From positions 32,001-96,000 of IMG/VR virus record IMGVR_UViG_3300020472_000012: 64,000 nt of DNA, one strand, 5' to 3'. This stretch comes from a virus. Below the pieces are notes generated by a model, which was not told where the DNA came from, searched no databases, and saw only the letters and a list, made by a program, of their open reading frames with translations. Every line of letters begins with the position of its first letter. The stretch's first letter is position 1. Positions 29,867-53,800 of the stretch are shown piece by piece. The position numbers and the translations under genes are program-made.

Positions 29867-31128
29867 ACTATTTTCAATACACATTAAATGATTTAGAACA
29901 CAATTCTGCAAAGAAAGAATTCAATTACATTACCTTCTTTGCTGGTGGTGGTGGAAGTTCTTGTGCATATAAACTTGCTGGTGGTGATGTAAGATACATG
30001 AATGAGTTTCAACAGATTCATGTAGATACTTACCTTGCAAACTTTCCTAATACAGTTCATGAATGTAAAGATATAAAACAAGTCACTGGTAAAGATATTT
30101 TAGAAATGACAGGATTACAAAAAGGTGAACTTGATATTATGGATGGTTCTCCACCATGTCCACCATTCTCTATGGCTGGAAAGAAAAGAGAAGGTTGGGG
30201 TAAAGAGAAAGTTGCATATGGAATGAAACAACAGAACATAGAAGACCTTACTTGGGAAATGATTAGAATCGCAGAGGAAGTCATGCCCAAAGTTATAGTA
30301 TGTGAAAATGTGAAAGGTCTTTCTATGGACTATGCAAGAGACCATCTTATTAAGATGATAACAGATTTTGAAAAACTTGGGTATTCAGTTACATGGAAAA
30401 TCATGAAGGGTCATGAACATGGAGTACCACAAAAAAGAGAAAGAGTATTCTTAGTTGGTGTTCGTGATGATGTATTAGATGCAATAGGAATGCCATTTAT
30501 GTGTTTAAGTGGATTGTTTCCAGAGACAACTCCAGAAAGAATATCGATTGGAGAAGCAATTGATGACTTAATAGATGATGAAGAGAATAAGAAGGATGCA
30601 GAATATCTAGTTAATTCAATGAATAATTCATCAAAGTCACATTGGATTAATGGATTTGAGACACATCCAGACCCAGACTATGCACACTGTGGCCCATGTA
30701 AAGGGTTAGATGGTGTTGCAGATATGATGGGAAATCGTCCTTACATATCAATAGGTGATGATATTGTTGGGCCTTGGTTTGAAGAACAAATAGAAAATGG
30801 ACACTTAAAAGAAGAGGATGCAAAACATTCTTATTATATGTCAAGAATTGTTCCAAAACATCTTCCAGCACATTCACTAACTGAACAAGGATGTCAAGAA
30901 AAATTTATGGGTGGTAATCACTTCCACTATAGTGGTAAGAGGATATACACACCAAAAGAAATGGTCAGACTTATGACATTACCAAATGATTATAAGATGA
31001 CTGGGGACTATAACGATAAAGGTGCAAGAATAGGTTTAATGGTTGCACCACTATGTTTGTACTACTTAGTAGAACAAATAAAGGAACAGGTATTAAAGCC
31101 ATGGAATTCACTGCACCAAAAGACTTAG
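29857..31128 (+). CDS. DNA (cytosine-5) methyltransferase
   Basis: Motif I FFAGGGG, IV GSPPCPPFS, VI ENVKG, VIII QKRER. Confidence 0.95.
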   Translation: MHMNYFQYTLNDLEHNSAKKEFNYITFFAGGGGSSCAYKLAGGDVRYMNEFQQIHVDTYLANFPNTVHECKDIKQVTGKDILEMTGLQKGELDIMDGSPPCPPFSMAGKKREGWGKEKVAYGMKQQNIEDLTWEMIRIAEEVMPKVIVCENVKGLSMDYARDHLIKMITDFEKLGYSVTWKIMKGHEHGVPQKRERVFLVGVRDDVLDAIGMPFMCLSGLFPETTPERISIGEAIDDLIDDEENKKDAEYLVNSMNNSSKSHWINGFETHPDPDYAHCGPCKGLDGVADMMGNRPYISIGDDIVGPWFEEQIENGHLKEEDAKHSYYMSRIVPKHLPAHSLTEQGCQEKFMGGNHFHYSGKRIYTPKEMVRLMTLPNDYKMTGDYNDKGARIGLMVAPLCLYYLVEQIKEQVLKPWNSLHQKT

Positions 31129-32102
31129 GTTTTGACGAAACCTTTGAACGATTTAATGGGAAGTTCCTAGATGAAACTTCTTATGATACTGTTGTATCTT
31201 CTATTGGAGTAGAAGAAGATATTATCAAAATCTACAAACCAACTGGTTCATTGTTTGATAAACCATTACTTGCATGTATAGTAAAGAATACCTATCAAGG
31301 TGACACTTACCATCAAGTTAAAGACACTTTGTATTCTATAGATGATACTTCTACCATGAGAGCAAACGCTGCCGGCCCTATCGACCACGAAGAAATGAAA
31401 GCAAAAGGATTGATAGAAGGTAAAGATTATGTTCTAAGAACACCAAATTCATATTATCCATTAAAGAAGAATGGTGAATTCAATCGTATTGCAGAAGCAA
31501 ATGCAATTCATTCTGTCTTTGCTGGATATAAGAGAGGTAGATTTACTGGTATGATAGGATTATCAAACTGGTGTGAAAAGAAATCTAATATAGATAAATG
31601 GAATACAATGAAAAAGATTGCAGTTGTTAACGAACAAGCACTTAAGAAAGGTTGTCCAGATATCTGGAAACTACAAAGAACATATGCAGATGAATGTATA
31701 GAAGAGAAGTATCATTTAGGTGGTGCTCCAATTACTACATTATCTGCAAACAAATATACCAGTGAAGGGACTGCAAAGATGTCTGCACATATTGATGGTA
31801 AAGACCTAGAGTTTGGTATGACTACAATGTGTGTATTCAGATTAGGTAACTTTGGTGGTGCATATCTAACATTCCCAAGATATGGAATTGCAATTGAGGC
31901 TGATGATGGGGATGTATTGATTGCAGATTCAAACGAATTACATGGAGTCACCAAGATAGAAGGTGATGGAATAAGATTATCGTGTGTTGCATACTGTTCA
32001 ACTGATGTTGCTACTAAAGGACAAGGTGGTAAATCAGAGAAGGCAATAGGACAACATGCAAGTAAGTATCAAGAAAAAGGTAGTCTTGACTCATTCTTAT
32101 GA
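31101..32102 (+). CDS. TET/JBP-family 5-methylpyrimidine dioxygenase
   Basis: SAHIDGKD (HxD), GGAYLTFPRYG, LHGVT, RLSCVAY; overlaps C5-MTase; ends GSLDSFL. Confidence 0.85.
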   Translation: MEFTAPKDLGFDETFERFNGKFLDETSYDTVVSSIGVEEDIIKIYKPTGSLFDKPLLACIVKNTYQGDTYHQVKDTLYSIDDTSTMRANAAGPIDHEEMKAKGLIEGKDYVLRTPNSYYPLKKNGEFNRIAEANAIHSVFAGYKRGRFTGMIGLSNWCEKKSNIDKWNTMKKIAVVNEQALKKGCPDIWKLQRTYADECIEEKYHLGGAPITTLSANKYTSEGTAKMSAHIDGKDLEFGMTTMCVFRLGNFGGAYLTFPRYGIAIEADDGDVLIADSNELHGVTKIEGDGIRLSCVAYCSTDVATKGQGGKSEKAIGQHASKYQEKGSLDSFL

Positions 32103-32260
32103 AGAAGATTTGGACTATATGGAAGTATGCAATAGGTAGTTTTTCAGATGAGAAAACAGAAGACTACGATAACCATGTTGCAATAATAAGAACATTTGTT
32201 GTTGGTATTAATGTGATATGTGCATTTTTTATTATGGCAAACATAATACACAATTGGTGA
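32099..32260 (+). CDS. Small membrane protein, 53 aa (not in ORF track)
   Basis: MKKIWTIWKYAIGSFSD...AIIRTFVV...IIHNW; ATGA-coupled to TET. Confidence 0.65.
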   Translation: MKKIWTIWKYAIGSFSDEKTEDYDNHVAIIRTFVVGINVICAFFIMANIIHNW

Positions 32261-32263
32261 TTA

Positions 32264-33058
32264 ATGGATAGATTATACATTCCAACATATGACAGAGTTG
32301 GTAAACAACTTGCATTTGATAGTCTTCCAAATAAATGGAAGGACAAAGCAATATTAGTTGTACATCCAGACGAAGTACATGAGGGTTATCCTACATTATC
32401 ATGTCCAGTTCAAGGGACTGGTATTGCACCAGTTAGAGAATGGATTGCACAACATGGTCAAGGAACTAGATATGGTGTCATAGATGATGACATAGAATTT
32501 GTATATACTAGAAAAGAAGACGAAGAAGGCCCAAGTAATATCAAACTAGATGATAACATGTTTGACTCTATGATTAATATCTTCAATGACTGGATGGATA
32601 TGGGGTATATGCACTGTGGAGCAGATGCATCTTGGAATCCACCTACAAGAGATAAAGACCACAAAGAGTGTGGTAGAATATGTGGTAATGTATTCTATGA
32701 TGGAGAAAGACTACCAGTTGATGATATAGACTGGACTGGATTACCAATTGCAGAAGACTATTATGTCACCTTACAGTTATTAACTATGGGGTTTCCTAAT
32801 ATGATATCTTATAGGGCTAGAGTTAATCCAAATGAAACCCAAGCAAAAGGTGGTTGTTCCACCTTTAGAAGTTTAGAGATTCATAATGAATCTATGAGAG
32901 AATTACAGAGAAGGTTCCCACAATTTGTAAAACTAAGAGAAAAGATTGCAAAGAATAGTGGAGAATGGTCTAATAAAGTGAAACTGGCTGCAACCATTTC
33001 ATGGAAAGAGGCATATAAGTCTTCTCAAGTATCGACAATAACAGATTTTATGGTATAA
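32264..33058 (+). CDS. TET-associated GT-A glycosyltransferase (GREB1/TAGT-like)
   Basis: IPTYDR, VIDDD, EDYYVTLQLL, GGCS; adjacent to TET and C5-MTase. Confidence 0.82.
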   Translation: MDRLYIPTYDRVGKQLAFDSLPNKWKDKAILVVHPDEVHEGYPTLSCPVQGTGIAPVREWIAQHGQGTRYGVIDDDIEFVYTRKEDEEGPSNIKLDDNMFDSMINIFNDWMDMGYMHCGADASWNPPTRDKDHKECGRICGNVFYDGERLPVDDIDWTGLPIAEDYYVTLQLLTMGFPNMISYRARVNPNETQAKGGCSTFRSLEIHNESMRELQRRFPQFVKLREKIAKNSGEWSNKVKLAATISWKEAYKSSQVSTITDFMV

Positions 33059-33059
33059 T
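33032..33059 (+). promoter_or_regulatory. Sigma70-type promoter (16-bp spacer, extended -10), leaderless
   Basis: TCGACA-N16-TATAAT with TGn; ATG 6 nt downstream. Confidence 0.7.
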
Positions 33060-33065
33060 ATTAAT

Positions 33066-33245
33066 ATGAGTGAAAATATAATAGAAATAATTAGAATGTT
33101 CCGAACTCTGGAAACAGAAGATATGGATGTAGTCCTATCTGCACTGAAAGAGATTAAAGACAAGAGGGATGGTGAAATTACTGTGTCGTCTAAGTCTAAT
33201 CGAAATGAGTTTGGAGTACCATTTATAGTGCCACCAAAAGAATGA
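33066..33245 (+). CDS. Small hypothetical protein, 59 aa (not in ORF track)
   Basis: MSENIIEIIRMFR...; ATGA overlap with gp62. Confidence 0.65.
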   Translation: MSENIIEIIRMFRTLETEDMDVVLSALKEIKDKRDGEITVSSKSNRNEFGVPFIVPPKE

Positions 33246-33619
33246 ACCCTTTCGACTTTGTTAATTCAGTAACATTTACAAAGGAAGATATCATGGTAGA
33301 TGATATCTCAGAGAAAGAATACGCTCCTTATATCACAAATAGGACATTATCCTACCATCAAGATTGCATACTCTATGCTAACGAAATGAATCGTAGACAC
33401 CACCTAAATAGTCGTCTTCAATTTCATTATTTCCTAAATACTCTTAGAAAAAGAAAAAGGTTTGCTAAATGGGCAAAACCGAATGTCTTGGACGATATGA
33501 AAGTCATCCAAGAGTATTATGGAGTCTCAAAATCTAAAGCGGAAGATTATATGAAACTTCTTTCTGCAAAAGAAATTGAGGAATTGAAAAACAGAATGAA
33601 AAAAGGTGGGAGACAATAA
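33242..33619 (+). CDS. gp62: Clamp loader small subunit
   Basis: PYITNRTLS, ANEMN, RKRKRFAKW, YYGVS. Confidence 0.93.
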   Translation: MNPFDFVNSVTFTKEDIMVDDISEKEYAPYITNRTLSYHQDCILYANEMNRRHHLNSRLQFHYFLNTLRKRKRFAKWAKPNVLDDMKVIQEYYGVSKSKAEDYMKLLSAKEIEELKNRMKKGGRQ

Positions 33620-33622
33620 ACA

Positions 33623-34021
33623 ATGAGCTACGACCTCTCCGATATGGTAGAGGTAGAGTTGAAAGAATCCGATGACTTTCTAAAGGTCAAAGAGACGCTG
33701 ACACGAATTGGTGTGGCATCTCGTAAAGAAAAGATACTCTATCAATCGTGTCATATCTTACATAAACGAGGAAGATACTATCTTGTACACTTCAAAGAAC
33801 TCTTTGCATTAGATGGAAAAGAGTCTTCTATAGTGGAATCAGATATTGGAAGACGAAATGCAATTGCCAGACTTCTTGAAGAATGGGGATTGATTAAAAT
33901 CATTTCCAACAATGCTGAAACACCACTTGCACCAATGAGTCAGATTAAGGTTTTACCCTATAAAGAAAAAACAGAGTGGGAACTTATTCCGAAATACAAC
34001 ATTGGTGTGGTGAGTAAATGA
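33623..34021 (+). CDS. regA: Translational repressor RegA
   Basis: DDFLKVKETLTRIGV, LYQSCHILHK, VHFKELF. Confidence 0.97.
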   Translation: MSYDLSDMVEVELKESDDFLKVKETLTRIGVASRKEKILYQSCHILHKRGRYYLVHFKELFALDGKESSIVESDIGRRNAIARLLEEWGLIKIISNNAETPLAPMSQIKVLPYKEKTEWELIPKYNIGVVSK

Positions 34022-34887
34022 ATGAACAAGTAAGAGTCATCAAGTTTACTGGAAAGAACAAAAACAAAGACAATGTTCCCAACATGGAGTTAAGGAACAG
34101 AGTCATGAGTAAAGTTTTTAACAGAACAGAAAAAGAAAGAAGAATTCTATTTGCAAAGTGTGCTCAAGCTGCATACTGGAATAAAGCAGATGGAAAAGAA
34201 TTTGGTAAACAGTTTGGATGGAAAGCACATCAGTATATCGATATTGAAGGTGCTCAAGTTCATATTTGGCATGATGCAGAAGACTTAATCATTGCAGCGA
34301 GAGGTACAGAACCTACTCAGATGAATGATATCTATGCAGATTTAGAAATATTCAAATCCGACTCATTCACTGGAGTTGGTCAAATCCATCAAGGATTTAG
34401 AGAAGAAGTAGATAAAGTTTGGGACTCAATTCTTTCCAGAGTAGAAAAGTATGGAAGGAAAGGTAGAGTTGCAAAGAAAATTTGGGTAACAGGACACTCG
34501 CTCGGTGGTGCAATGGCAACACTTATTGCATCTCGTCTTGAGTATGTGAATAAATATGATGTAGATACACTCTACACTTATGGTTCACCTAGAGCGGGTG
34601 GCCCTAAGTTTGCCAAATGGTGCAATACTCATTTGAACCACCAAAGGTTTGTAAACAACAATGATGTTGTACCTTGTGTTCCTTCTGTATTCAGATGGAG
34701 ACACAATGGAAGATGCAAGTACATCAAGTCTGATGGAACAGTAACAGACTTAGGAAGATGGTCGATGGAAAGAATCAAGGACAAAGGGTGGGGACTATTA
34801 ACAACAATAATAAAAGGAAGATTAGACTTTGTTGCAGACCATAATATAGTTGACTATATTAAACATCTGGAAAAGGATAATGCATGA
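34018..34887 (+). CDS. Class 3 lipase (alternative start 34105)
   Basis: RGT, TGHSLGG, YTYGSPR, NNDVVP, DH. Confidence 0.92.
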   Translation: MNEQVRVIKFTGKNKNKDNVPNMELRNRVMSKVFNRTEKERRILFAKCAQAAYWNKADGKEFGKQFGWKAHQYIDIEGAQVHIWHDAEDLIIAARGTEPTQMNDIYADLEIFKSDSFTGVGQIHQGFREEVDKVWDSILSRVEKYGRKGRVAKKIWVTGHSLGGAMATLIASRLEYVNKYDVDTLYTYGSPRAGGPKFAKWCNTHLNHQRFVNNNDVVPCVPSVFRWRHNGRCKYIKSDGTVTDLGRWSMERIKDKGWGLLTTIIKGRLDFVADHNIVDYIKHLEKDNA

Positions 34888-34890
34888 TAA

Positions 34891-35265
34891 ATGAAGTGGT
34901 TATTGACAGTTTTATTTTTTATGTCAGCTGCGGGCTCGTGTGATGCAGCCATAAAAGAGTGGACTGAAAAAGAAAGAAAACTCTATCATTCATACCTAAC
35001 ATTATCAGCAATCGACACATATCAAACATTTAAAATGATTGATTGTCAGAAACAACCATCTTGTCCTTTTGTAGAAATGAATCCTATAATAGGCAGTCAT
35101 CCATCTAAAGAAAGATTATTGGCTGTTAAGTTTATAGGTAATGCAGTAATCTATAAACTGTTAGACAACAATGCTAACGACAGAGAATTTGCATTAAAGT
35201 TAATGAATGGTCTACAAGGATTCGTAGTAACTCACAATGGTATTTACTACATGAGAAGGTTTTAA
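34891..35265 (+). CDS. Hypothetical exported/membrane protein
   Basis: Signal peptide; D..T...EMNPIIG. Confidence 0.7.
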   Translation: MKWLLTVLFFMSAAGSCDAAIKEWTEKERKLYHSYLTLSAIDTYQTFKMIDCQKQPSCPFVEMNPIIGSHPSKERLLAVKFIGNAVIYKLLDNNANDREFALKLMNGLQGFVVTHNGIYYMRRF

Positions 35266-35532
35266 ATGTATACATTATTAATACTAACACTTAAATCAAT
35301 CCTATCATCAGTTATAGGAAGTTCTTTCTATAGGTGGTTTCAAACAACAAATTTTGGTATATGGTTCCAAGTTAAACTCGAACAATTCATGTCTTATTTG
35401 TCCGATAAATATGATATAGAACTTGCAAAAAAAGAAGCAAAGTGGAGACAGGATTATCCATTACTTTCTGCAAGAATTGATAAGATGGATAAACGAATTA
35501 AGGAACTAGAAAATGGCAAAAAAACCAGTTGA
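35266..35532 (+). CDS. Hypothetical membrane-anchored protein
   Basis: Hydrophobic N-terminus, C-terminal coiled coil. Confidence 0.7.
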   Translation: MYTLLILTLKSILSSVIGSSFYRWFQTTNFGIWFQVKLEQFMSYLSDKYDIELAKKEAKWRQDYPLLSARIDKMDKRIKELENGKKTS

Positions 35533-36517
35533 CCACTTCAACACTGGGATGTGGACATCCCCTTGGCAACAAGTAAAATCTCTTTGGAACATATCAACCT
35601 CACGAACAAGACCAGACTACAGTCTGGAAGTATTTGGTGATGTTGCATCACAATTCTTTGGTGTTGGTGCATTAGAAAGTAGAAAGTTAGTATACAAATG
35701 GGCAACTAATCCAGAAACAAGACCTATAACAGATGGACATTGGTTACACTCAGAACTATTATGTGACCCAGATTTCCTACAATCTTGTCCAGAAGGTTCT
35801 CTAGGACATGGGTATATGCAGTTTATGGAGTTCTGGCAACCCATCTATGCAAAGGAAGGAGTTGAAGGTGCATATGGTAAGCCTTGGTATAGTGCAAGAC
35901 ACTTTGCAGATGTATCCCACAATCAAGTTAAGAAACGCAAACAAAACAAATTCAGTCCAGACCTTTCAAAACATATTGCAAAAAAAGAACTAAACTACTA
36001 TCTTAGTAACCCTAGAGTACATCCAGATATGAAAAGGGATGTAGAAAATCTAGGAATGTCAAAGGCTTTGAGAATCAGAGTTGGAGATAGACTGATGGGG
36101 ATGCATGACATGTATCATATTTTACTAGGATTTGGTAGAGACCAATTAGGTGAAATGTTAATTCTATGTTGGAATGCAGTGCATTCTGGATATACTGGAT
36201 TACATGTAATCACTTGGTTAACTGCATTTAGAGAATCAATTAAACATAGAACATGGGAACCTCTTAGAATGAGAACCGAAGCATATGAAAATGCAAAAAA
36301 ATCTAAGAACTTATTAGAAGTAAACTATGAAGAAGCACTTCTAACAGACCTAACAAAGTTAAGAAGAAAGTTGGGTATTAAGATGAATAAGTCCTATCAA
36401 AAATTTACTGGTGTAAGACATTATAATACTATTCCATCTAAACAATATAAGATGGAGAGTTGGGAAGAAGGAACTAGACTATATCAGTGTAGTCAAGAGG
36501 GCGATTCGTATAAATAA
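35513..36517 (+). CDS. Coq4-family protein (second copy)
   Basis: CPEGSLGHGYMQFM, HDMYHILLGFGRDQLGE, LRRKLGI. Confidence 0.82.
   Translation: MAKKPVDHFNTGMWTSPWQQVKSLWNISTSRTRPDYSLEVFGDVASQFFGVGALESRKLVYKWATNPETRPITDGHWLHSELLCDPDFLQSCPEGSLGHGYMQFMEFWQPIYAKEGVEGAYGKPWYSARHFADVSHNQVKKRKQNKFSPDLSKHIAKKELNYYLSNPRVHPDMKRDVENLGMSKALRIRVGDRLMGMHDMYHILLGFGRDQLGEMLILCWNAVHSGYTGLHVITWLTAFRESIKHRTWEPLRMRTEAYENAKKSKNLLEVNYEEALLTDLTKLRRKLGIKMNKSYQKFTGVRHYNTIPSKQYKMESWEEGTRLYQCSQEGDSYK
36509..36516 (+). promoter_or_regulatory. T4-type late promoter TATAAATA
   Basis: 9 nt before ATG 36526. Confidence 0.75.
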
Positions 36518-36525
36518 TACTTACG

Positions 36526-36765
36526 ATGCCAGTAAAGTATAAAACAGCACATAGAACGATAGATAGGATGACCAAAAGAGAGGTCATGAACTATTATCAT
36601 ATGAAGTGCCAGAGTTTGAATGAGTTGTTGAAATGTTTTAATGATGAAAACACAAAACCAAAACTCAGACAAAAAGTGAAGAATGAATTAGTGAGAAGAC
36701 AAAAAATTGGTCTTATCAGATTACAGATGAGAAACAGTGAAGGCGTCGTCTCTGAGTTCAAATAA
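36526..36765 (+). CDS. Small basic hypothetical protein
   Basis: ORF after late promoter. Confidence 0.7.
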   Translation: MPVKYKTAHRTIDRMTKREVMNYYHMKCQSLNELLKCFNDENTKPKLRQKVKNELVRRQKIGLIRLQMRNSEGVVSEFK

Positions 36766-36778
36766 TCGAGGTAGATAT

Positions 36779-36937
36779 ATGGACTGGTTAAAAAGCAGAT
36801 TGTCAGAAGCTTCCACTTTAGATGGTGGAGTTATCTTGGCATTATCACTTGGTATCCTGTTCTTAGGCCCAATCCTTAAATACTTAGCATATGCTGGAGT
36901 ATTATATGGTGGTTGGAAAATGCTTAAGAAAGGGTAA
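36779..36937 (+). CDS. Small two-TM, holin-like protein
   Basis: MDWLKSRLSEASTLDG, two TM helices, basic C-terminus; GAGG RBS. Confidence 0.6.
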   Translation: MDWLKSRLSEASTLDGGVILALSLGILFLGPILKYLAYAGVLYGGWKMLKKG

Positions 36938-36971
36938 CCCAATGCTCTAAACGAGAGAAGAATCGTAACGA

Positions 36972-36999
36972 AAGACCCACCTATAAGGTGGGTTTTTTT
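36972..36999 (+). terminator. Rho-independent terminator
   Basis: ACCCACC-tataa-GGTGGGT then T run. Confidence 0.88.
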
Positions 37000-37006
37000 A
37001 TAAATA
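36999..37006 (+). promoter_or_regulatory. T4-type late promoter TATAAATA
   Basis: 10 nt before iscA ATG. Confidence 0.75.
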
Positions 37007-37016
37007 TCTCATGTAG

Positions 37017-37346
37017 ATGAACATCGAACTTACCGATAAAGCAATCCAAAAACTTATGGAAAAGACCTGTGATATGGGACTTTCGCATGCTGTACGCATC
37101 GGTATTACTGGTGGTGGATGTGGTGGATTTGAATATATATTCGATTTTTTAGAACACCAACCAGCAAAGGATGATGATATTGTATTAGATTATGGAAAGT
37201 TTTTTATACATATTGACCCTGTATCTGCACCTTATCTAGATGGTCTTACTCTAGACCATACACGAAATGGACTTAATGAAGGATTCGAGTTTTTTAATCC
37301 AAATGTGAAAAACACATGTGGATGTGGCGTTTCTGTCACATTCTAA
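37017..37346 (+). CDS. iscA: Fe-S cluster A-type carrier (IscA/SufA/HesB)
   Basis: GGCGG, FFNPN, CGCGVS. Confidence 0.93.
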   Translation: MNIELTDKAIQKLMEKTCDMGLSHAVRIGITGGGCGGFEYIFDFLEHQPAKDDDIVLDYGKFFIHIDPVSAPYLDGLTLDHTRNGLNEGFEFFNPNVKNTCGCGVSVTF

Positions 37347-37357
37347 GACCCCTTTTG

Positions 37358-37365
37358 TATAAATA
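37358..37365 (+). promoter_or_regulatory. T4-type late promoter TATAAATA heading the curli-like operon
   Basis: Exact consensus, AGGAG RBS downstream. Confidence 0.8.
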
Positions 37366-37390
37366 CTAATGATATATTGAAGGAGAGATT

Positions 37391-37705
37391 ATGTCTTTTA
37401 TTGAATTTGTGACCGATGTGGGCGTCCCCATTGGGGGTGCTGTAGTCATGGGATTTTTTATCTTCATGGTACTTAAACAAATATTTGAGGGTATCATAGA
37501 TGATATAAGGACTCTAACTGGATTTTGTAAGATGTTAGAGGACAGAGCAAGAGTTGGTTGTAATGAACTGGTGAAGATAGACCTATTGGTAAGTAGTGCA
37601 TTAGATTTAACACCACCAGTCGATAGAGTGGCTAGAGCAGAAAATTTCAGAACTGATGACAAAGGTAATCCACAAAATGTTAAACTTGATGTGAGGAGAG
37701 ACTAA
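37391..37705 (+). CDS. TM + coiled-coil protein
   Basis: DVGVPIGGAVVMGFFIF TM; paralogous to next gene. Confidence 0.8.
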   Translation: MSFIEFVTDVGVPIGGAVVMGFFIFMVLKQIFEGIIDDIRTLTGFCKMLEDRARVGCNELVKIDLLVSSALDLTPPVDRVARAENFRTDDKGNPQNVKLDVRRD

Positions 37706-38016
37706 TGGAAACATTGGCAGATGCTATCTCACAATTTGGGTTCCCTGTTGTTATGGCTGCGGGAATGGGTTACTTTATCTATTTTATCTGGAGATTTGTA
37801 ACAGATAAGATAGAACCAGAACTTGAAAAGATGCATTTTGCATTAATCAAGTGCATCGATGCAAATAGAATGTTAGATAATGATATGATTCGTCTTCAAC
37901 AAAAAGTAAATGTTGTACTTGAGTACAGAGAAAGGCAAGATGTTCTTGCAGACGCAGAAGAAAAAGAAGCACTTGCAGAGGTAAAGAAGAATGAAAGAGG
38001 GAAAAGTAAGAAGTAG
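37705..38016 (+). CDS. TM + coiled-coil protein
   Basis: QFGFPVVMAAGMGYFIYFIW TM; RMLDNDMIRL. Confidence 0.8.
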   Translation: METLADAISQFGFPVVMAAGMGYFIYFIWRFVTDKIEPELEKMHFALIKCIDANRMLDNDMIRLQQKVNVVLEYRERQDVLADAEEKEALAEVKKNERGKSKK

Positions 38017-44638: not shown

Positions 44639-44644
44639 AGAAAT

Positions 44645-44782: not shown

Positions 44783-44794
44783 TTTGTATATATA

Positions 44795-45347: not shown

Positions 45348-45356
45348 ATTCTTTAC

Positions 45357-45384
45357 TTGACAGATTGTACTTCTGTGGTATTAT
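45357..45384 (+). promoter_or_regulatory. Sigma70-type promoter (16-bp spacer, extended -10)
   Basis: TTGACA-N16-TATTAT; ATG of 13-codon uORF 6 nt downstream. Confidence 0.7.
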
Positions 45385-45428
45385 AGCTATATGAATAAAA
45401 TAATTATATTATCGCAGGAGTCCGATTC

Positions 45429-46013
45429 ATGAGTAATTCAGTAGTAAGAGGTCAAGTTCCCTATGACTTGTCTTTTGTTAATGTGGGAGACACATTAGAA
45501 AGCATAGGTTCAGCAACTGCATTTGGTGAAAGAAATGTAGTTTTATTTGGTTTGCCTGGAGCATTTACACCAACTTGTTCCACACAACAACTGCCAGGCT
45601 ATGAAGAGTTGTATGACCAGTTTAGTGAAGCTGGTGTTGATGAAATTTACTGTACATCTGTAAACGATGGTTTCACAATGAAAGCATGGTTCGATTCATT
45701 AGGAATTGAAAAAGTTAAAGCACTTTCAGATGGTAATGGTAAATTTGCAAGATTTATGGGTATGTTAGTATCCAAAGAGAACTTAGGTTTTGGTAACAGG
45801 TCATGGAGATATGCAGCTGTTATTAGAAATGGTGAAGTAGTAAAACTATTTGAGGAAGAAGGAATAAGAGATAACTATGAAGGTGACCCTTATGAAGCTT
45901 CCACACCACAAAATGTTCTTGAATATGTTCAAGAACATCCAATGACACCTATTCCAATAACAGAACATGATGTTGAGAAAGAAGGTGAAGCACCTACCCC
46001 AGCGGGTAGTTAA
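45429..46013 (+). CDS. Peroxiredoxin (Prx5/Redoxin)
   Basis: PGAFTPTCS, SVNDGF, RSWRYA. Confidence 0.94.
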   Translation: MSNSVVRGQVPYDLSFVNVGDTLESIGSATAFGERNVVLFGLPGAFTPTCSTQQLPGYEELYDQFSEAGVDEIYCTSVNDGFTMKAWFDSLGIEKVKALSDGNGKFARFMGMLVSKENLGFGNRSWRYAAVIRNGEVVKLFEEEGIRDNYEGDPYEASTPQNVLEYVQEHPMTPIPITEHDVEKEGEAPTPAGS

Positions 46014-46034
46014 TTATAAATCTATGGAGTTGTT

Positions 46035-46265
46035 ATGGATTTTTTGAGAAAGCTTTGGGATTCAATTGTAGAATTCTTTTTAGGCACTACTAGTGGCCAA
46101 TTAGATGTTCCAGTTGAAACACCAAAAGTTCAAAAAGTGTCTAAAGCAAAACTAGGTAAACTTACCAAAGCACAATTAAGTGAAAAAGGTAAAGAACTTG
46201 GTGTTGATGTAGACTCAAGACAGTTAAAGTCTAAAATCGTAAACGAAGTTTACAAAGCCCAATAA
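46035..46265 (+). CDS. Hypothetical protein, Rho-N/HeH-like C-terminus
   Basis: LTKAQL...G.ELGV.VD.R..K..IV. Confidence 0.65.
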   Translation: MDFLRKLWDSIVEFFLGTTSGQLDVPVETPKVQKVSKAKLGKLTKAQLSEKGKELGVDVDSRQLKSKIVNEVYKAQ

Positions 46266-46266
46266 C

Positions 46267-46572
46267 ATGATTGATTATAAACTTGTCGAAAACGCGAGTG
46301 GAGAACAAGGAATTCAAATATGTGAAGGGAAGTATACTGGGGTTGTCTACACTTATGGGGAAGTACAATTACTTCCAGTTAAGGAAGGTGAACAACCTCA
46401 GATAAACTTTACTAGAGCTGTTCGTGCATGTCCAGATGAACTCCGAGATAGTATTTCAGAGGATAAGGAATTCAACCAAATTATGGGTGATATCCTTGTA
46501 GAACTTTTAGAAGAAGAAGGCGAAAAGGCCGTGGAGTTATTGAAAGATGATAAAAAATCCGAACAAACTTAA
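46267..46572 (+). CDS. Conserved T4-like hypothetical protein
   Basis: GKYTGVVYTYGEV, IMGDILV. Confidence 0.7.
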   Translation: MIDYKLVENASGEQGIQICEGKYTGVVYTYGEVQLLPVKEGEQPQINFTRAVRACPDELRDSISEDKEFNQIMGDILVELLEEEGEKAVELLKDDKKSEQT

Positions 46573-46993
46573 AGAAGAGATTATAAGGGACGAAGGTGTC
46601 GTTTATGAGATTTACAATGACCATCTTGGTCTTGCCACATTTGGTATAGGACATTTGGTTAAAGATGGTGACCCAGAACAAGGTCAACCAGTGGGAACAG
46701 AGGTTTCCAAAGAACGAGTGGATGAAGTATGGGAACATGACTTTACAGAACATGTAGAGGAATGTGGAAAACTTTATCCAGATTTAGAACATTACCCAGA
46801 TGAAGTTCAAAGGGTTTTAGTCAATATGACATTTAATATGGGTATGACTAGACTCAGTAAGTTCAAGAACTTTAAATCTGCAATTGAAAGAAATGATTGG
46901 AAACAGGCAGCTGTTGAAGGTCGTGATTCAAGATGGTATAACCAAGTCACCAATCGAGCAGAAAGATTGATGACAATGCTAGAAGAAGTATGA
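46547..46993 (+). CDS. Lysozyme (GH24, T4 e-like)
   Basis: DEG...YNDHLG..TFGIGH, NMTFNMG, DSRWYNQVTNRAER. Confidence 0.93.
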   Translation: MIKNPNKLKEEIIRDEGVVYEIYNDHLGLATFGIGHLVKDGDPEQGQPVGTEVSKERVDEVWEHDFTEHVEECGKLYPDLEHYPDEVQRVLVNMTFNMGMTRLSKFKNFKSAIERNDWKQAAVEGRDSRWYNQVTNRAERLMTMLEEV

Positions 46994-47301
46994 TTAAATT
47001 ATTCCAATTAGTAACTGGAGAAACTATTATAGGTGAAGTGGATTCAAAAGATTTCTCTTCATCTGCACAATTCAATATCAATCAACCTTTGTTTGTATTC
47101 GCACAACCAGAGGAAGATGACCCAAAGAAGATTAGAATTCAATTGATGCCTTATGCACAATTGTCTGATAATCAATGTGTTAATATTAACTTTAAGAATG
47201 TAGTCTGGAGTTCAGACCCAGAGACAGGTTTAAAGAATCAATATCAAACAATAATGGGTAAGATAGTTACTCCACCAGAAACACAAAAGATTATCACATG
47301 A
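46990..47301 (+). CDS. Conserved hypothetical protein (Sm-like)
   Basis: LVTGETIIG; typical upstream of gp43. Confidence 0.7.
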   Translation: MIKLFQLVTGETIIGEVDSKDFSSSAQFNINQPLFVFAQPEEDDPKKIRIQLMPYAQLSDNQCVNINFKNVVWSSDPETGLKNQYQTIMGKIVTPPETQKIIT

Positions 47302-47513
47302 AAGAAGTAATTTTAAAAGCCCTTCGTCTCAAGTACGAAGGACAGATTGCCGAGGCAAAAGCAAATATAGATATTTACTTAACAAGTTCAGTGGGTATTG
47401 GAGAACATCCAGAAATTCTGGAAGCAATTGATACACAAGTAAATAAGATTGCAGAAGCAGAAGATAGACTTATGGTCTTGGATGGGCATTTCACTACACC
47501 AAAAATACCTTGA
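47298..47513 (+). CDS. Conserved hypothetical protein
   Basis: ANIDIYL..VGIGEHP. Confidence 0.75.
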   Translation: MKEVILKALRLKYEGQIAEAKANIDIYLTSSVGIGEHPEILEAIDTQVNKIAEAEDRLMVLDGHFTTPKIP

Positions 47514-47537
47514 CAAATATAAGTATCGTAGTATACT
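47510..47537 (+). promoter_or_regulatory. Sigma70-type promoter for DNA polymerase, leaderless
   Basis: TTGACA-N16-TATACT; ATG 6 nt downstream. Confidence 0.75.
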
Positions 47538-47543
47538 TAATAT

Positions 47544-50033
47544 ATGCACTTTTATACTAATGTCCAGAGATACAGGAATTGGATTCTTGTAAGAGAATTT
47601 AAGGATGGGGTTAATAAGCCCAGACGAATTCCATATAAACCGACATTATATCTTCCGACCAATAAAGATAGTTCATTCAGAAGTATCAATGGCAAAAACT
47701 TAGAACCCAAGAAATTTACCAACATGAGTGGTGTTAGACCATTCATGGATAAGTATAAGGATGTTGAAGGGTTTGATATCTATGGTTTAGATAGATATGA
47801 ATATGCATGGGTAACAGAAACATTTCCACAAGATATTGAGTGGAGTTTTAGAAATATCAAAGTTATGAACATTGATATTGAGTGTGAATGTGAACATGGA
47901 TTTCCAGAACCTATCGTTGCCCCAGAACCAATCAATGCAATAACATTTAAACTATTTGGTGAACCTACCAAATATGTTTTTGGAACTCAGCCTTGGAATC
48001 ATGGTGATAAGAACATTCGTTACTTTGAATGTAAGAATGAGGTACATCTACTTAAAACATTCCTAGATGAATATCGTAAGGTTATGCCAGATATCATTAC
48101 TGGTTGGAATGTTGAAACATTTGATATTACATATCTGATGAATCGTATTACCAGAATGATTGATAGTAGACATGCAGATATGTTATCGCCTTGGAATATA
48201 ACTTCTTCTAGAGAATGGGAAAGTTTTGGTTTAGGTGGTAATAAACAACAAACTTATGACCTTATGGGTGTAGAAGTTATAGATTACCTACAACTTTATA
48301 AGAAGTTTACATTCAAGAACAGAGATAGTTATCGATTAGAAAACATTGCACAAATTGAACTTGGTGAAGGTAAGTTAGATTATTCAGAGTTTGGTGCAAT
48401 GCATTTGTTCTATAAACAGAACTATCAGAAGTTTTTAGAGTATAATGTTCGTGATGTGGACTTAGTAGAAAGACTTGATGATAAGTTAGGTCTAATGACT
48501 TTAATGATTCAGATGGCTTATACTGCAAAGTGTAACTATAGTGATACTTTTGGACAAGTGAAGTATTGGGATTTACTTATCTGGAATCGATTACGAAAAC
48601 AAAACATTATTATTCCACCAAGACCACATGGAACCAAATCACAAAAGTTTGTTGGTGCATATGTAAAAGAACCACAAGTAGGATTGCATAATTGGGTGGT
48701 ATCATTTGATTTGAATAGTCTATATCCACATTTGATTATGCAGTATAATATCAGTCCAGAGCAATTGGATAAAACTGGTACTCAACATGATATTGATGAA
48801 TTACTTGAAAAGAAAGTAGACTTTGATTATAGTAATCATCTTGCAGTTTGTCCTAATGGTGCAAGATTCAGAAAGAATAGACAGGGATTTCTTCCAGAGA
48901 TTCTTGAATCTCTATATGATGAGAGAGTCATGTGGAAGAACAAGATGATTGAATTGCAAAGAGAATATGAAGATACTGATGATGCAGAACAGAAGAAGTT
49001 TTTAAACAGAGAGATTGCAATTGCACACAACAACCAAATGGTTCGTAAGATTTCTTTGAACAGTGCTTATGGTGCATTGGGTAATCAGTGGTTTAGGTAC
49101 TACGATTTGATGATGGCAGAAGCAGTTACAACTAGTGGTCAACTCGCAATTAAATGGGTTGAACAAGCAGTTAACTCCTATCTAAATGAAGTTCTAGGTA
49201 CAGAGGATGATTATGTTGTTGCAATTGATACTGACTCAATCTATGTACGATTTGATGAATTAGTTAATAGGGTTAATCCAAAGAACCCTATTGATTTCTT
49301 AGACAAGGTTTCTAATGGTAAGATGCAAGAAGTGATTAACCATTGTTATGATGACCTTGCACAATATACAAATGCATTTCAGAATAAGATGGTAATGGGT
49401 AGAGAGGTAATTGCAGATAAAGGTATCTGGACTGCCAAGAAAAGATACATTCTTAATGTACATGACAATGAGGGTGTAAGATTACATGAACCTAAACTTA
49501 AGATGATGGGTATTGAAACTGCAAAGTCTTCTACACCAGCATGGGTTCGTGGTAGATTAGAAGATGCATTGACAGTTGTTATGAAGGGTGATGAAAAACT
49601 TGTACATGAGTTTGTAGAGAATGCAAGAGAAGAATTTAAGAAACAACCAATAGAAGATATTGGTTTCCCTAGAGGAGTGAATGGTGTTGTTGAATATGCA
49701 AATCCAAAAACAATTTACAAGAAAGGAACACCTATTCATGTTCGTGCATCATTATTGTATAACCACCATGTAAAAAAACATGGAAAGGAATTGGTATACC
49801 AGTTAATTAATAATGGTGAGAAAATGAAATTTGTTTACCTTAAAATACCAAATCCTACTGCTGAGAATGTCATTGGTTTTATAAATACTTTACCGAAGGA
49901 GTTTGAATTGGCAAAATACATAGACTATGACTTACAGTTCGAGAAATCATTTGTAGAACCTTTTAAACTTATTCTGGAGAAGATTGGGTGGTCAACAGAA
50001 CCGACATCTTCTTTAGAGGAATTTTTTGGGTAA
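47544..50033 (+). CDS. gp43: Family B DNA polymerase
   Basis: DIE exo, SFDLNSLYP, KISLNSAYG, IDTDS, KKRY; clamp-binding tail SLEEFFG. Confidence 0.98.
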   Translation: MHFYTNVQRYRNWILVREFKDGVNKPRRIPYKPTLYLPTNKDSSFRSINGKNLEPKKFTNMSGVRPFMDKYKDVEGFDIYGLDRYEYAWVTETFPQDIEWSFRNIKVMNIDIECECEHGFPEPIVAPEPINAITFKLFGEPTKYVFGTQPWNHGDKNIRYFECKNEVHLLKTFLDEYRKVMPDIITGWNVETFDITYLMNRITRMIDSRHADMLSPWNITSSREWESFGLGGNKQQTYDLMGVEVIDYLQLYKKFTFKNRDSYRLENIAQIELGEGKLDYSEFGAMHLFYKQNYQKFLEYNVRDVDLVERLDDKLGLMTLMIQMAYTAKCNYSDTFGQVKYWDLLIWNRLRKQNIIIPPRPHGTKSQKFVGAYVKEPQVGLHNWVVSFDLNSLYPHLIMQYNISPEQLDKTGTQHDIDELLEKKVDFDYSNHLAVCPNGARFRKNRQGFLPEILESLYDERVMWKNKMIELQREYEDTDDAEQKKFLNREIAIAHNNQMVRKISLNSAYGALGNQWFRYYDLMMAEAVTTSGQLAIKWVEQAVNSYLNEVLGTEDDYVVAIDTDSIYVRFDELVNRVNPKNPIDFLDKVSNGKMQEVINHCYDDLAQYTNAFQNKMVMGREVIADKGIWTAKKRYILNVHDNEGVRLHEPKLKMMGIETAKSSTPAWVRGRLEDALTVVMKGDEKLVHEFVENAREEFKKQPIEDIGFPRGVNGVVEYANPKTIYKKGTPIHVRASLLYNHHVKKHGKELVYQLINNGEKMKFVYLKIPNPTAENVIGFINTLPKEFELAKYIDYDLQFEKSFVEPFKLILEKIGWSTEPTSSLEEFFG

Positions 50034-50066
50034 CTGATTCTCTCCTTCTTAATTAAGGAGAGAAAA

Positions 50067-50483
50067 ATGAACCCACACATTTATAGAGCAGACATAACGA
50101 GAGTTGTAGATGGCGATACATGTGATGTGACACTTCATTTAGGATTTGATATATTATATAAAGGTAGAGTAAGGCTGACTGGAATTGATACACCAGAATC
50201 TAGAACCAGAGACCTTGAAGAAAAGAAATTTGGACTTGCATCCAAAGAATACTTCAAGGAATGGGTTGCAAGATTTGATTCTGTATTAGTTGAGTCAACT
50301 GAGAAAGGTAAGTTTGGTAGAATACTTGGTAGGATTTATAACCCAGATATGTCTGAATGTTATAACGACAAGAGTATAGAAGACCATCATGCAGTACCTT
50401 ATAATGGTGAAAACAAAGACCTAGTAGAGTCACAACATATGGCCAACAGAGAATGGTTGACAGAACAAGGACTCGTGGTATAA
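50067..50483 (+). CDS. Thermonuclease (SNase-like)
   Basis: RVVDGDT, RLTGIDTPE, GKFGRILG. Confidence 0.92.
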   Translation: MNPHIYRADITRVVDGDTCDVTLHLGFDILYKGRVRLTGIDTPESRTRDLEEKKFGLASKEYFKEWVARFDSVLVESTEKGKFGRILGRIYNPDMSECYNDKSIEDHHAVPYNGENKDLVESQHMANREWLTEQGLVV

Positions 50484-50510
50484 TAGTATTATATTTGAGG
50501 ATTTTATATT

Positions 50511-51557
50511 ATGGATTTATTGAAAGACCTTGCAAAGGCAAGTGGTAATGACCTTGCATCAGTAGTAGACGATGGTATCGTTGCTGGTGATGTGGATGGT
50601 TATTTAGACACTGGTTCATATATATTGAATGCACTTTTAAGTGGTTCAATATATGGTGGACTAGCATCAAACAAGATTACAGCATTAGCGGGAGAGTCTT
50701 CCACTGGAAAGACTTTCTTTGCGTTAGGAATTTGTCAAAAGTTCCTAGAAGACAACCCAGATAGTGCAGTCATTTACTTTGAAAGTGAATCTGCACTAAC
50801 TAAAGATATTATAGTCGAAAGGGGTATTGACCCTAAAAGGATTATGATTGTCCCAGTAGTTACGATTGAACAGTTTAGAACTGAAGCAGTTCGTATACTA
50901 GACCAATACGATAAGACACGAAAAGAAGACCAGAAAATATTATTTGTTCTGGACTCATTAGGTATGTTATCAACTGAAAAAGAGGTAACAGATGTAGAGT
51001 CTGGAAAGATGGTTCGTGATATGACAAAGGCACAAGTAACCAAAGGTGCATTCAGAGTATTAACTTTGAAACTAGGAAAGGTAGGTGTCCCTATGATTGT
51101 TACGAACCATACCTACGATAAGATTGGTTCCTTATACCCAGAGAAAGAAATGGGTGGTGGAAGTGGTCTTAAGTATGCAGCTTCTAGTGTAGTATTCTTA
51201 TCGAAGAGAAAAGAAAAAGAAGGTACAGAAGTTATAGGTAATATCATTCATTGTAGGAACTGGAAATCTAGACTTACAGTAGAAAACAAAATGGTCGATG
51301 TTCGATTGACTTATGATAAAGGTTTATCTAGACATTATGGACTTCTTGAACTTGCAATTAAGTATGGTATCTTTAAACAAGTATCAACAAGGATTGAACT
51401 TCCAGATGGGAAAACTCAGTTTGGAAAAACTATTAACAACAATCCAGAAACTTATTTCACACCAGAAATCTTAGAACAATTAGATGAGTGTGCCAAGAAA
51501 GAGTTTAGATATGGTGCAGAAGTAGAAGAAATTGAAAGTGAAGTAGATGCAGAATAG
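50511..51557 (+). CDS. uvsX: RecA-like recombinase UvsX
   Basis: [19 protein letters not shown]. Confidence 0.95.
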
Positions 51558-52932
51558 GTTAGAATTATTAATACTTAAGAATCTCTTTACGAGTGATGAA
51601 TACATTCGTAAGGTGATTCCATATGTTAGGGATGAATTCTTTTCTGAGAGAGAAGAGAGATTAATCTTTGTTAATATTAAAGAATACTTTGAGAAGTATA
51701 ATAAGAATCCAACTCATGAAGCATTAACAATTCAAATGAATGAGGCAAGTGGTCTCAATCAAGATGAACTATCCAGTGCATTACACATTGTATCTCAATG
51801 TAAATCATCAATAGAAGAAACACCACACGAATTTCTATTAGATGAAACAGAGAAATGGTGTAAAGACAGAGCAGTTTATAATGCAGTAATGGATTCTATT
51901 ACCATCTTAGATAAGAATTCAAAAAGAGATAAGGGTGAGATTCCAGAGTTACTTAAGGATGCACTTTCAGTATCTTTTGACCAACATATTGGTCATGATT
52001 GGATGGAAAATGCAGATGCAAGGTATGAATTTTATCATACAGAAGAAGAAAAGATTCCATTTGATTTAGATTTACTTAATAAGATTACAAAGGGTGGAAT
52101 GCCCAACAAGACTTTGAATATTATAATGGCTGGAACTGGGGTAGGTAAATCCTTGTTCATGTGTCATTGTGCAGCCAACAATCTCATGATGGGTAAGAAT
52201 GTACTTTACATATCTATGGAAATGAGTGAGGAAAAGATTGCAGAAAGAATTGATGCAAACTTAATGAATATTCCATTACAAGAACTTTCAGATTTACCTA
52301 AACCGATGTATGATAAGAAGATTAAATCTATTAGGGATAAGACAGTTGGAAGGTTAGTGGTTAAGGAATACCCAACAGCAGCTGCACATACTGGACATTT
52401 TAGACATCTATTACAAGAGTTAAATCTTAAGAAAGACTTTGTTCCAGATGTAATCTATATTGATTATCTAAACATATGTGCATCATCAAGAATCAAGCCT
52501 GGAAGTAATGCAAACACATATACTTATGTTAAGAGTATTGCAGAAGAGGTTAGAGGTCTTGCAGTAGAATACGATATTCCAGTTATGAGTGCAACTCAAA
52601 CAAATAGAACTGGATTTGTTTCTACAGATGTAGGATTAGAAGATACATCAGAATCCTTTGGATTACCAGCAACTGCTGATTTGATGATTGCATTGATATC
52701 AACAGAAGAACTGGAAGACCTTGACCAGATAATGGTTAAACAATTAAAGAACAGATATAATGACCCATCATACTACAGAAGGTTTGTAGTTGGTGTAGAT
52801 AGAAGTCGTATGAAGTTGTATGATTGTGAACAATCTGCACAAGATGAGTTACATGATTCTGGGCCAGCTTTCGACAACTCTGATACTGGAAAAAGGATAT
52901 CAGAAGAGAAAACAGATGGTTGGAACATATAA
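51547..52932 (+). CDS. gp41: Replicative DnaB-like helicase
   Basis: [27 protein letters not shown]. Confidence 0.97.
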
Positions 52933-53800
52933 TAAGGTCTTACCTTTTAAAGACGATGAACGAGTAATTGACCAATTTGGTTGGACACTAACATCAGTCA
53001 TTAAACCTACTAAAGCATCCAAAAAGAAATGGAAGGATGCATATCTAGAAAATACAGAACAGAGAAGAAGTGATGATGCTGAATACCTAAGTGGATTAAA
53101 ATTCAGTGAGTTCCATGCTGGACTATGTGAAGACATTGTACATTATTGGAGTATGGTTGGTGGTAAAATTGTAGACCCATTTGCTGGAAGATTAACAAGG
53201 GCATTCGTTTCTGCATCATTAGGAAGGTCATACGAAGGTTATGATGTATCACCTACAACAGTAAAGAATGTTAATGAACATTTAGATAAACATTCTATAT
53301 CTGATGCAATTGTTAAAGAGGGTGATGGTTGTATGATGCAACTCACTTATGATGAAAGTGCAGATTTAGTTATGACTTGTCCACCATATCATAGATTAGA
53401 AGCATATGAATCTGCAACAGGTCAGTTATCTGATGTAAAGGGGTATCACCATTTCTTAGAAAGAATTAATGAATGTGGAACGAACATAGAAAGAGTTTTA
53501 AAGCCTGGTGGGTTTTGTGTCTGGATATGTGGAGACTGGAGAGAAGATGGCAAGATGAGGTCTTTTCATTCAGATGTAATAAACATGTTTACATTTAATG
53601 CTGGTCTTAAACTCCACGACACAGTAATTATAGAAAACCAATCACCATTTGCAGCTTTGCAATTAGGTAAGGTTGCATCAAAAAGATATACAAGTAAAGT
53701 ACATGAATATATGTTAGTGTTTAGAAAAGAGGGTGAGATAGTTCCTACTTCAAATAAGATTAAGTTACACGAAGAAAGTAGTTTAGAGGATTTCTTCTAA
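52916..53800 (+). CDS. N6-adenine/N4-cytosine DNA methyltransferase
   Basis: DPFAG (motif I), TCPPY (motif IV variant), LKPGGF, HEYMLVFRK; ends SLEDFF. Confidence 0.88.
   Translation: MVGTYNKVLPFKDDERVIDQFGWTLTSVIKPTKASKKKWKDAYLENTEQRRSDDAEYLSGLKFSEFHAGLCEDIVHYWSMVGGKIVDPFAGRLTRAFVSASLGRSYEGYDVSPTTVKNVNEHLDKHSISDAIVKEGDGCMMQLTYDESADLVMTCPPYHRLEAYESATGQLSDVKGYHHFLERINECGTNIERVLKPGGFCVWICGDWREDGKMRSFHSDVINMFTFNAGLKLHDTVIIENQSPFAALQLGKVASKRYTSKVHEYMLVFRKEGEIVPTSNKIKLHEESSLEDFF

Follow-up and report, generated by a model that had tools for sequence, protein, structure and literature searches.

In bacteriophage T4 the DNA polymerase gp43 and the late-transcription co-activator gp33 both bind the sliding clamp gp45, and gp33 of the T-even phages is an established clamp client. 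The peptides of gp43, gp33, and gp55 in T4 and RB69 (Protein Data Bank, PDB, entry 1B8H; T4 clamp, 1CZD) are located at or near the C-terminus, behind a flexible linker, and follow the pattern [ST]L[DE]…F/L-F, as in ASLDFLFG of T2 gp43, TLDFLL of gp33, and SLDFLYEAND of gp55. Peptides of this type are described here at the C-termini of three DNA-modifying enzymes, a TET-like dioxygenase, a TET-associated glycosyltransferase (TAGT), and an N6/N4-type methyltransferase, encoded in a 64,000-nucleotide stretch of viral DNA (bases 32001-96000 of the 114,373-base IMG/VR virus record IMGVR_UViG_3300020472_000012). This whole stretch is referred to below as the window, and coordinates without a prefix are counted from its first base. 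Its source is an uncultured T4-like marine myophage. Judging from sequence comparisons and structural modelling, we put at about 0.75 the probability that the tails of the three enzymes are gp45 interaction motifs of the polymerase, gp33, and gp55 type. As in T4 and RB69, a clamp of the gp45 family is encoded, and the pocket in the model is situated between both domains of a single protomer; unlike in T4 and RB69, the carriers are DNA-modifying enzymes rather than replication or transcription proteins, and the local consensus is SLExFF instead of SLDFLF.

Recruitment of a DNA-modifying enzyme to a clamp is known for DNMT1, in which a QxxLxxFF-like PCNA-interacting protein (PIP) box brings the enzyme to PCNA, marking new DNA behind the fork; the clamp lineage, the enzymes, and the purpose (epigenetic inheritance versus probable anti-restriction masking) differ from those considered here. 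Closer to the present case stands the T4 α-glucosyltransferase (α-GT), whose binding to gp45 has been reported (Sommer et al. 2004 BBRC, as cited and reconfirmed in PMC13216743), and which co-purifies with gp45 (PMC13216743). It is a clamp-linked DNA-modification enzyme proposed to act along with replication, as we propose for the enzymes of the window, and its AGT-family homolog in the marine contig L003 carries a tail of the type in question, …TQSLEDFFG (L003:2984-4354). Unlike the window glycosyltransferase, which belongs to the TAGT family PF20691, α-GT acts on 5-hydroxymethylcytosine (5hmC) incorporated from the nucleotide pool; moreover, the α-GT of T2 ends with …KEQFDIITK and has no polymerase-like tail, therefore its clamp contact must differ in kind.

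The modification genes themselves resemble the pathways presented by Burke et al. 2021 (PMC8256090) and in bioRxiv 10.1101/2023.12.21.572611, in which a C5-methyltransferase, a TET-like dioxygenase, and a TET-associated glycosyltransferase are likewise adjacent. Clamp-loader or gp45 genes were noted near such cassettes, and a C-terminal motif or clamp tethering is mentioned in neither work (PMC8256090; bioRxiv 10.1101/2023.12.21.572611). Such a tail would be masked in the enzymes studied there, as they were fitted with His tags at the C-terminus. A search of the full-text literature for motifs by which phage methyltransferases or hypermodification enzymes might bind a clamp gave no relevant result. 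An earlier annotation of the window, made from its sequence without database searches (below, the sequence-only reading), had held the arrangement to be undescribed; this stands for the tails, on which no paper was found, and does not stand for the binding of a DNA-modification enzyme to gp45, already published for T4 α-GT. In the window, the idea of gp45 clients would extend to a 5-methylcytosine (5mC)-type pathway and to an abundant family of N6/N4 methyltransferases.

C-terminal tails encoded in the window

The clamp, the proteins with tails, and the tails themselves are as follows.

27013..27681, + strand: gp45 sliding clamp, 222 aa (PF09116, E 8e-13), the proposed docking platform
47544..50033, + strand: gp43-type family B DNA polymerase (PF00136 and PF03104)
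50007..50030, + strand: polymerase tail SSLEEFFG, the in-genome reference for a clamp-binding peptide; aligns with …ASLDFLFG of T2 gp43
31101..32102, + strand: TET/JBP-type 5-methylpyrimidine dioxygenase, 333 aa (PF12851, 48.9 bits against a cut-off of 34.9)
32079..32099, + strand: TET tail GSLDSFL, at the end of a flexible extension of ~30 residues (from the translation)
32264..33058, + strand: TAGT glycosyltransferase, GT-A, with a DDD motif (PF20691, 33.6 bits against a cut-off of 27.5)
33032..33055, + strand: glycosyltransferase tail STITDFMV (from the translation)
52916..53800, + strand: N6/N4-type DNA methyltransferase, 294 aa (PF01555, E 2e-19; open reading frame, ORF, from 52820)
53777..53797, + strand: methyltransferase tail SSLEDFF (from the translation)
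12187..12741, + strand: gp55 late sigma factor (phrog_234, E 2e-59)
12706..12723, + strand: gp55 motif GVENFY, followed by QSTKK (from the translation)

All five C-termini listed in the sequence-only reading are present in the translations, and the gene identities given there hold (PF12851, PF20691, PF01555, family B polymerase, phrog_234, and PF09116 for gp45). In gp55 the motif GVENFY ends five residues before the C-terminus. The same placement is seen in T2 gp55 (…SLDFLYEAND), and the relatives have GVENFYQSTK or VEKYFNSTKKK. In the polymerase, the TET enzyme, the glycosyltransferase, and the methyltransferase the tail forms the last 7-8 residues, and the consensus of the enzyme tails is [ST]-[LI]-x-x-F-[FLM]. 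The C5-methyltransferase encoded upstream of the TET gene, rightly said to be without the motif, ends with …NSLHQKT, and a homolog of it with …PWNLLQEKT. The gp33 family (PF16805) was not found in the record from which the window comes, the completeness of which is estimated at 63%.

A regular expression for the tail, chosen after the data had been seen, matches within 0-2 residues of the C-terminus in four of the 142 genes of the 114-kb record, precisely the polymerase, TET, glycosyltransferase, and methyltransferase genes, compared with 0.117 expected from its internal frequency (Poisson P 7e-6). In two related records three matches against 0.13 expected and two against 0.135 were obtained with the same expression, though these hits fall in homologous genes and thus are not independent. 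AlphaFold2 (AF2) confidence, expressed as the predicted local distance difference test score (pLDDT), falls from 67 to 51 along TET residues 301-333 and from 66 to 43 at the end of the methyltransferase, both tails sitting on extensions that lack structure in the models.

Conservation of the tails and their distribution

The sequence-only reading had named beforehand a lack of tail conservation in homologs as the outcome that would speak against clamp binding; the opposite was found, as the tails are kept. Among the 113 full-length clusters obtained from the 120 nearest homologs of the TET enzyme, 110 end with the motif, and in an alignment that includes homologs as distant as 43% identity the conservation of L329 and F332 is 97%, versus 14-69% for the ten preceding linker residues. 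Such conservation of L and F beside a variable linker supports the view that the tails are under selection. The glycosyltransferase tail, in the form [ST][LI]xxF[FM], is kept in 24 of 37 full-length homolog clusters; two homologs, P0146 and P0148, break off with …KSSQ precisely where the fold ends, just before the position of the tail, and distant TAGTs have no tail, therefore the tail behaves as a module. An LxxFF-type tail is present in 59 of the 119 homolog clusters of the methyltransferase. Across TET proteins at large the tail is restricted, being found on 5 of 69 full-length representatives at 50% identity. One distant TET (P0328, 29% identity), with no relatives in viral or metagenome contigs, ends with …SNSLDDLFG; a homolog search with the tail-less TET P0289 gave nothing.

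The C-termini of all ORFs were also scanned in 159 related IMG/VR loci fetched via the methyltransferase and gp45. The scan recovered the polymerase and 39 copies of gp33 (PF16805; …GSITSFFSD, …ASLTTFFK), and gp33, as a known client, therefore serves as a positive control. Besides the α-glucosyltransferase mentioned above, the carriers in related contigs comprise a C5-methyltransferase (…LQLDQFMI, L003:6156-7400), a GT-B glycosyltransferase (…TSTIIDFMV, L105:4941-5993), another N6/N4 methyltransferase (…TGSLSSFFE, L097:4655-6061), a protein with a T5orf172/MUG113 domain (L041:7764-8321), and three proteins of 422-430 aa with no assigned function, one of them matching phrog_10773 (L083:7358-8635, L053:1331-2599, and L070:995-2287). 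The tail thus appears to have been added to six or more unrelated folds and to have been lost in a modular way. The ends of two further families drew attention: proteins of the T4_baseplate family (PF12322), which the scan picked up as what we take to be false positives, terminate with …LEGIQNFF (e.g., L008:6040-6747), and the gp21 head maturation protease (3984-4634) with …IMKNFFSKL. Both were rejected as clamp clients, being structural or assembly proteins without the S/T-L or acidic positions, and they make useful negative examples for tail-based screens. It is also worth mentioning that an 83-aa ORF located outside the window (G000:C1:25700-25951, equal to L161:1700-1951) ends with …KLDDFLISNQK, and that the end [LI]DDFL[IL]SNQK is conserved in its relatives at 55-90% identity; it shows no similarity to gp33 and was rejected as such, yet from its sequence it is a possible further clamp client.

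The relation between tail and clamp was also followed in isolated phages carrying TET-like genes, seven in total.

Melnitz: polymerase annotated, gp45 not searched; polymerase TTLEDFFG, TET GNLNDFLGE
C48C1: gp45 and T4-type polymerase present; polymerase ATLEDFFG, TET-like protein ISLEEFFV
DLP_6: gp45 and T4-type polymerase present; polymerase ATLDSFFA, TET-like protein ATLGDFFV, TAGT-like protein DLSSFFN
Cr30: gp45 and T4-type polymerase present; polymerase DLSSLFD, TET-like protein …TGATLF (doubtful tail)
S-CBWM1: gp45 and T4-type polymerase not detected; TET-like protein without a tail
HTVC112P: gp45 and T4-type polymerase not detected; TET-like protein without a tail
P12024L: siphophage of 35 kb, clamp not searched for; TET-like protein without a tail

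The comparison of homologs from phages with and without a clamp, proposed along with the sequence-only reading, came out as predicted: the TET-like proteins of C48C1 and DLP_6, and doubtfully that of Cr30, are tailed in the company of gp45, and in S-CBWM1 and HTVC112P neither tail nor clamp was detected. The end of a glycosyltransferase was visible in DLP_6 only. The enzymes of C48C1, DLP_6, and Cr30 form a separate TET subfamily, 28-34% identical in the core, therefore the tail either extends over two subfamilies or was gained in each of them. Close homologs of the methyltransferase are absent from isolated phages, where identity stays below 33%, so the comparisons of its tail with that of the polymerase rest on metagenomic contigs.

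Pairing of tails within genomes and a model of the complex

In several lineages the tail of an enzyme follows that of the polymerase or gp33 of the same genome. The polymerase end NASEWFAF is paired with the methyltransferase end NAEKFFEF in the lineage of two records, G009 and G010 (L245, corresponding to G009:C1:51820-55719), the polymerase end KTIERFF with the methyltransferase end GIEKFL or QVSKWW, and ASLTTFFK of gp33 with S[ST]LTDFFE of the methyltransferase. A permutation test on 12 pairs selected by the authors gave 204 versus 162±17 (P 0.011), modest support for the enzyme tails resembling, beyond the consensus, the tail that the polymerase or gp33 has in the same genome. The gp44 of the G009/G010 lineage shows 39% identity and is adjoined by a 441-aa ORF and by genes for a ClpP protease and a Mom-family DNA-modification protein.

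A model of the complex was built from the gp45 trimer and TET residues 300-333 with our own alignments, the TET tail being the one tail modelled. The interaction prediction score from aligned errors (ipSAE) was 0.66, 0.67, and 0.67 in three runs and 0.00 for the best of three controls; in the calibration of the method the mark was attained by 58 out of 80 complexes of solved structure, as against 2 out of 110 mismatched pairs, counts that are only roughly valid for our own alignments. The runs share at least 54% of the contacts, with a partner pLDDT of at least 43. In this model, a check suggested together with the sequence-only reading, the TET tail is placed in the inter-domain pocket of gp45 (0.67 versus 0.00). 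TET residues 326-330 and 332-333 make the contacts, L329 and F332 being held most tightly, with gp45 residues 32, 35-39, 102-108, 178, 181, 197-198, 211, and 213-216 of a single protomer. These residues are contributed by the two domains and by the intervening segment, and are mostly invariant among 25 homologs. The profile of the 25 homologs matches T4 gp45 (1CZD) and RB69 gp45 (1B77/1B8H) with E about 1e-30. The modelled site is, we take it, that of the RB69 structure 1B8H, an entry among the PDB matches.

Points against clamp binding and alternative explanations

The proposal that the TET enzyme, the glycosyltransferase, and the second methyltransferase use a polymerase-type peptide to reach gp45 is supported in silico by conservation, by the recovery of gp33, by the isolated phages, and by the model. 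A number of observations weigh against it. Both the regular expression and the co-variation pairs used for the statistics were picked after the data had been seen. Ends of the FF type on the baseplate and gp21 proteins imply that such ends alone are not specific. In 58 of the 119 methyltransferase clusters the protein has other aromatic ends (…NFW, …EWW, …NWW, …KWW), and the contigs with a WW/FW methyltransferase (L021, L068, and L172-L178) have the polymerase end KTIERFF, where visible. QVSKWW and GIEKFL fit the template hydrophobic-x-K/R-aromatic-aromatic, and EGEWW and KDNFW do not; the WW/FW class thus fits a shared template only partly. In the five records with divergent tails (G006-G010) gp45 was not detected by protein, PF09116, or profile search, and these include G009 and G010, which show the best co-variation and in which gp44 is present. 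The partner pLDDT in the model is below 50, and its pose may have been memorised from the solved RB69 complex of gp45 with a peptide (1B8H); since a like complex has already been solved, passing the calibration shows likeness and not binding of this copy. No tail is found here on the C5-methyltransferase, the enzyme that has to act first; the sequence-only reading proposed that it may be recruited through the TET enzyme, the gene of which it overlaps. Finally, the T2 α-GT and the T2 TAGT are both without such a tail, therefore the tail is neither necessary for clamp binding nor general in phages with gp45.

Three other explanations of the tails have to be considered. The tails might bind gp45 and still serve mainly regulatory competition for the three pockets, setting the timing with respect to the polymerase and gp33/gp55, or a restriction of the enzymes to phage as opposed to host DNA, and not a processive modification of new DNA. 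At least six proteins in the phage group are tailed, for three pockets per clamp, and in T4 the share of α- versus β-glucosylation is explained more by expression and activity than by affinity for gp45 (PMC13216743). We hold this to be unlikely as the principal role: it needs gp45 binding as does the reading of the tails as gp45 motifs for substrate targeting, so that the data do not separate the two, but DNA-modifying enzymes of several folds fit targeting at least equally well.

It is quite improbable that the tails dock to another hub, either the host β-clamp or some other component of the phage replisome to which the polymerase docks as well. The motif L-[DE]-x-F-[FL] does resemble bacterial β-clamp-binding motifs, of which the consensus is QL[SD]LF, and in G009 and G010 the matched polymerase and methyltransferase tails are accompanied by gp44 with no gp45 detected. 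However, the polymerase tail is homologous in position to …ASLDFLFG of T2 gp43, gp33 carries the tail too, and both these proteins bind gp45 in T4; furthermore, the tailed TET-like proteins of C48C1 and DLP_6 belong to phages with gp45, and in the model the tail enters the gp45 pocket, the control with gp45 replaced giving 0.00.

That the shared ends are no interaction motif at all, being a chance or compositional likeness or a C-terminal stability or degradation signal, is very improbable, for although FF-like ends occur on the baseplate and gp21 proteins and the motif was defined after the data had been seen, this explanation faces the enrichment (4 versus 0.12 expected), the 97% conservation of L and F beside a variable linker, the spread over at least six unrelated folds with modular loss, the co-variation with the polymerase or gp33 tail, and the tail-less TET-like proteins of S-CBWM1 and HTVC112P, where gp45 was not detected.

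The modification cassette and its surroundings

The genes of the record are all on the + strand. Its family B polymerase shares 49% identity with cyanomyophage gp43, and the closest isolate with a TET gene is the Methylophilales phage Melnitz (Kyanoviridae). The gene order is gp45, gp44, ORF254, C5-methyltransferase, TET, TAGT, gp62, regA, in which a four-gene modification cassette composed of ORF254 and the C5-methyltransferase, TET, and glycosyltransferase genes (29102-33058) is inserted within the clamp and clamp-loader operon, in the slot between gp44 and gp62. The order gp45, gp44, (ORF), C5-methyltransferase, TET, (glycosyltransferase) is kept in at least 17 related contigs; in another lineage an N6/N4 methyltransferase gene is situated ~2 kb downstream of gp45. 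The remaining genes of this segment are as follows.

27810..28742, + strand: gp44 clamp-loader large subunit (PF00004 and PF21328 Gp44_lid)
29102..29866, + strand: ORF254, the first cassette gene, without a tail (weak match to phrog_81, E 7e-4)
29857..31128, + strand: C5-cytosine DNA methyltransferase (PF00145, E 5e-49), overlapping the TET gene by 28 nt
33242..33619, + strand: gp62 clamp-loader small subunit, closing the cassette slot (phrog_225, E 1e-39)

The longest ORF for the TET enzyme begins at 31053, and its homologs favour the ATG at 31101. The iron triad HxD…H (H230, D232, and H281) is invariant, and the arginine binding 2-oxoglutarate (2OG), R292, is at least 90% conserved. The AF2 model of the enzyme has a mean pLDDT of 89 and the double-stranded β-helix (DSBH) fold, with CMD1, CcTet, TET2, and NgTET1 as the top Foldseek matches (E 1e-10 to 1e-12). 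To judge solely from the overlapping upstream C5-methyltransferase gene, its substrate would be 5mC and not thymine. The glycosyltransferase also matches phrog_842 (E 2e-36), and its D74-D75-D76, the GT-A DxD motif, is invariant; in the profile search it matched PF20691 only and does not belong to PF11440, the family of the T4 α-glucosyltransferase AGT. The start of the methyltransferase at 52916 was chosen from homologs. The protein scores 70.7 bits with PF01555 against a cut-off of 26.7 and has an invariant DPFxG; its motif IV, likewise invariant, reads CPPY, departing from the canonical form with D/S/N. The order of the motifs, I before IV, also differs from that of the Pfam model.

ORF254, which overlaps the start of the C5-methyltransferase gene, has no Pfam match, and from its weak phrog_81 similarity it may be a 2OG-Fe(II) oxygenase; its Atlas feature neighbours carry PF13759, which is a lead only. 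A further 2OG-Fe(II) oxygenase gene (PF13759, phrog_81; 53800-54444) begins at the final base of the stop codon of the methyltransferase gene, and its product ends with …TRDEAPF, without a tail.

Proposed mechanism and its significance

On the reading of the tails as gp45 motifs, the peptide at the end of its flexible linker would bury L and F in the hydrophobic pocket formed between the domains within a single gp45 protomer. Clamps are loaded only at the primer-template junctions of replicating phage DNA and are left on the new duplex; the tether would therefore gather the enzymes on new DNA that is still unmodified and would allow them to scan it in one dimension. The likely chemistry would begin with the tail-less C5-methyltransferase producing 5mC, which the clamp-bound TET enzyme would oxidise to 5hmC, to be glycosylated by the clamp-bound TAGT; the second methyltransferase would add an independent N6-A or N4-C mark. 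The masking of phage DNA is then probably carried out on the clamp of freshly copied DNA, as judged from the tails and the model. The data show the identity of the motif and its conservation, modularity, and distribution, with a supportive model; we infer gp45 binding itself, a link to replication, the sequence in which the reactions take place, and an advantage against restriction. Action at the fork, closing a period of vulnerability to restriction as proposed in the sequence-only reading, is likewise inferred.

In a broader sense we lean towards a portable gp45-binding peptide that was attached repeatedly to entire pathways of unrelated DNA-modifying enzymes (of the TET/JBP, TAGT, GT-B, AGT, and N6/N4 and C5 methyltransferase folds) in T4-like phages that modify their DNA after replication, the sliding clamp serving as a tool-belt for replication-coupled hypermodification.

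Modification after synthesis, as opposed to modification through the nucleotide pool, should expose new DNA to host nucleases for a time. If the proposal is true, a clamp tether would explain how methylation, oxidation, and glycosylation match the pace of the fork and are confined to phage DNA, and the tool-belt idea would come to cover base hypermodification besides replication, repair, and late transcription. It also suggests that His tags placed at the C-terminus of phage TETs and glycosyltransferases may mask a functional element, and that in vitro assays call for the clamp and its loader. Melnitz and DLP_6 are culturable phages with the feature, which makes direct tests feasible. The tail would, if the proposal holds, also be a cheap sequence tag for new DNA-acting enzymes in T4-like phages, candidates in the relatives being the proteins of 422-430 aa, including the one matching phrog_10773, and the T5orf172 protein.

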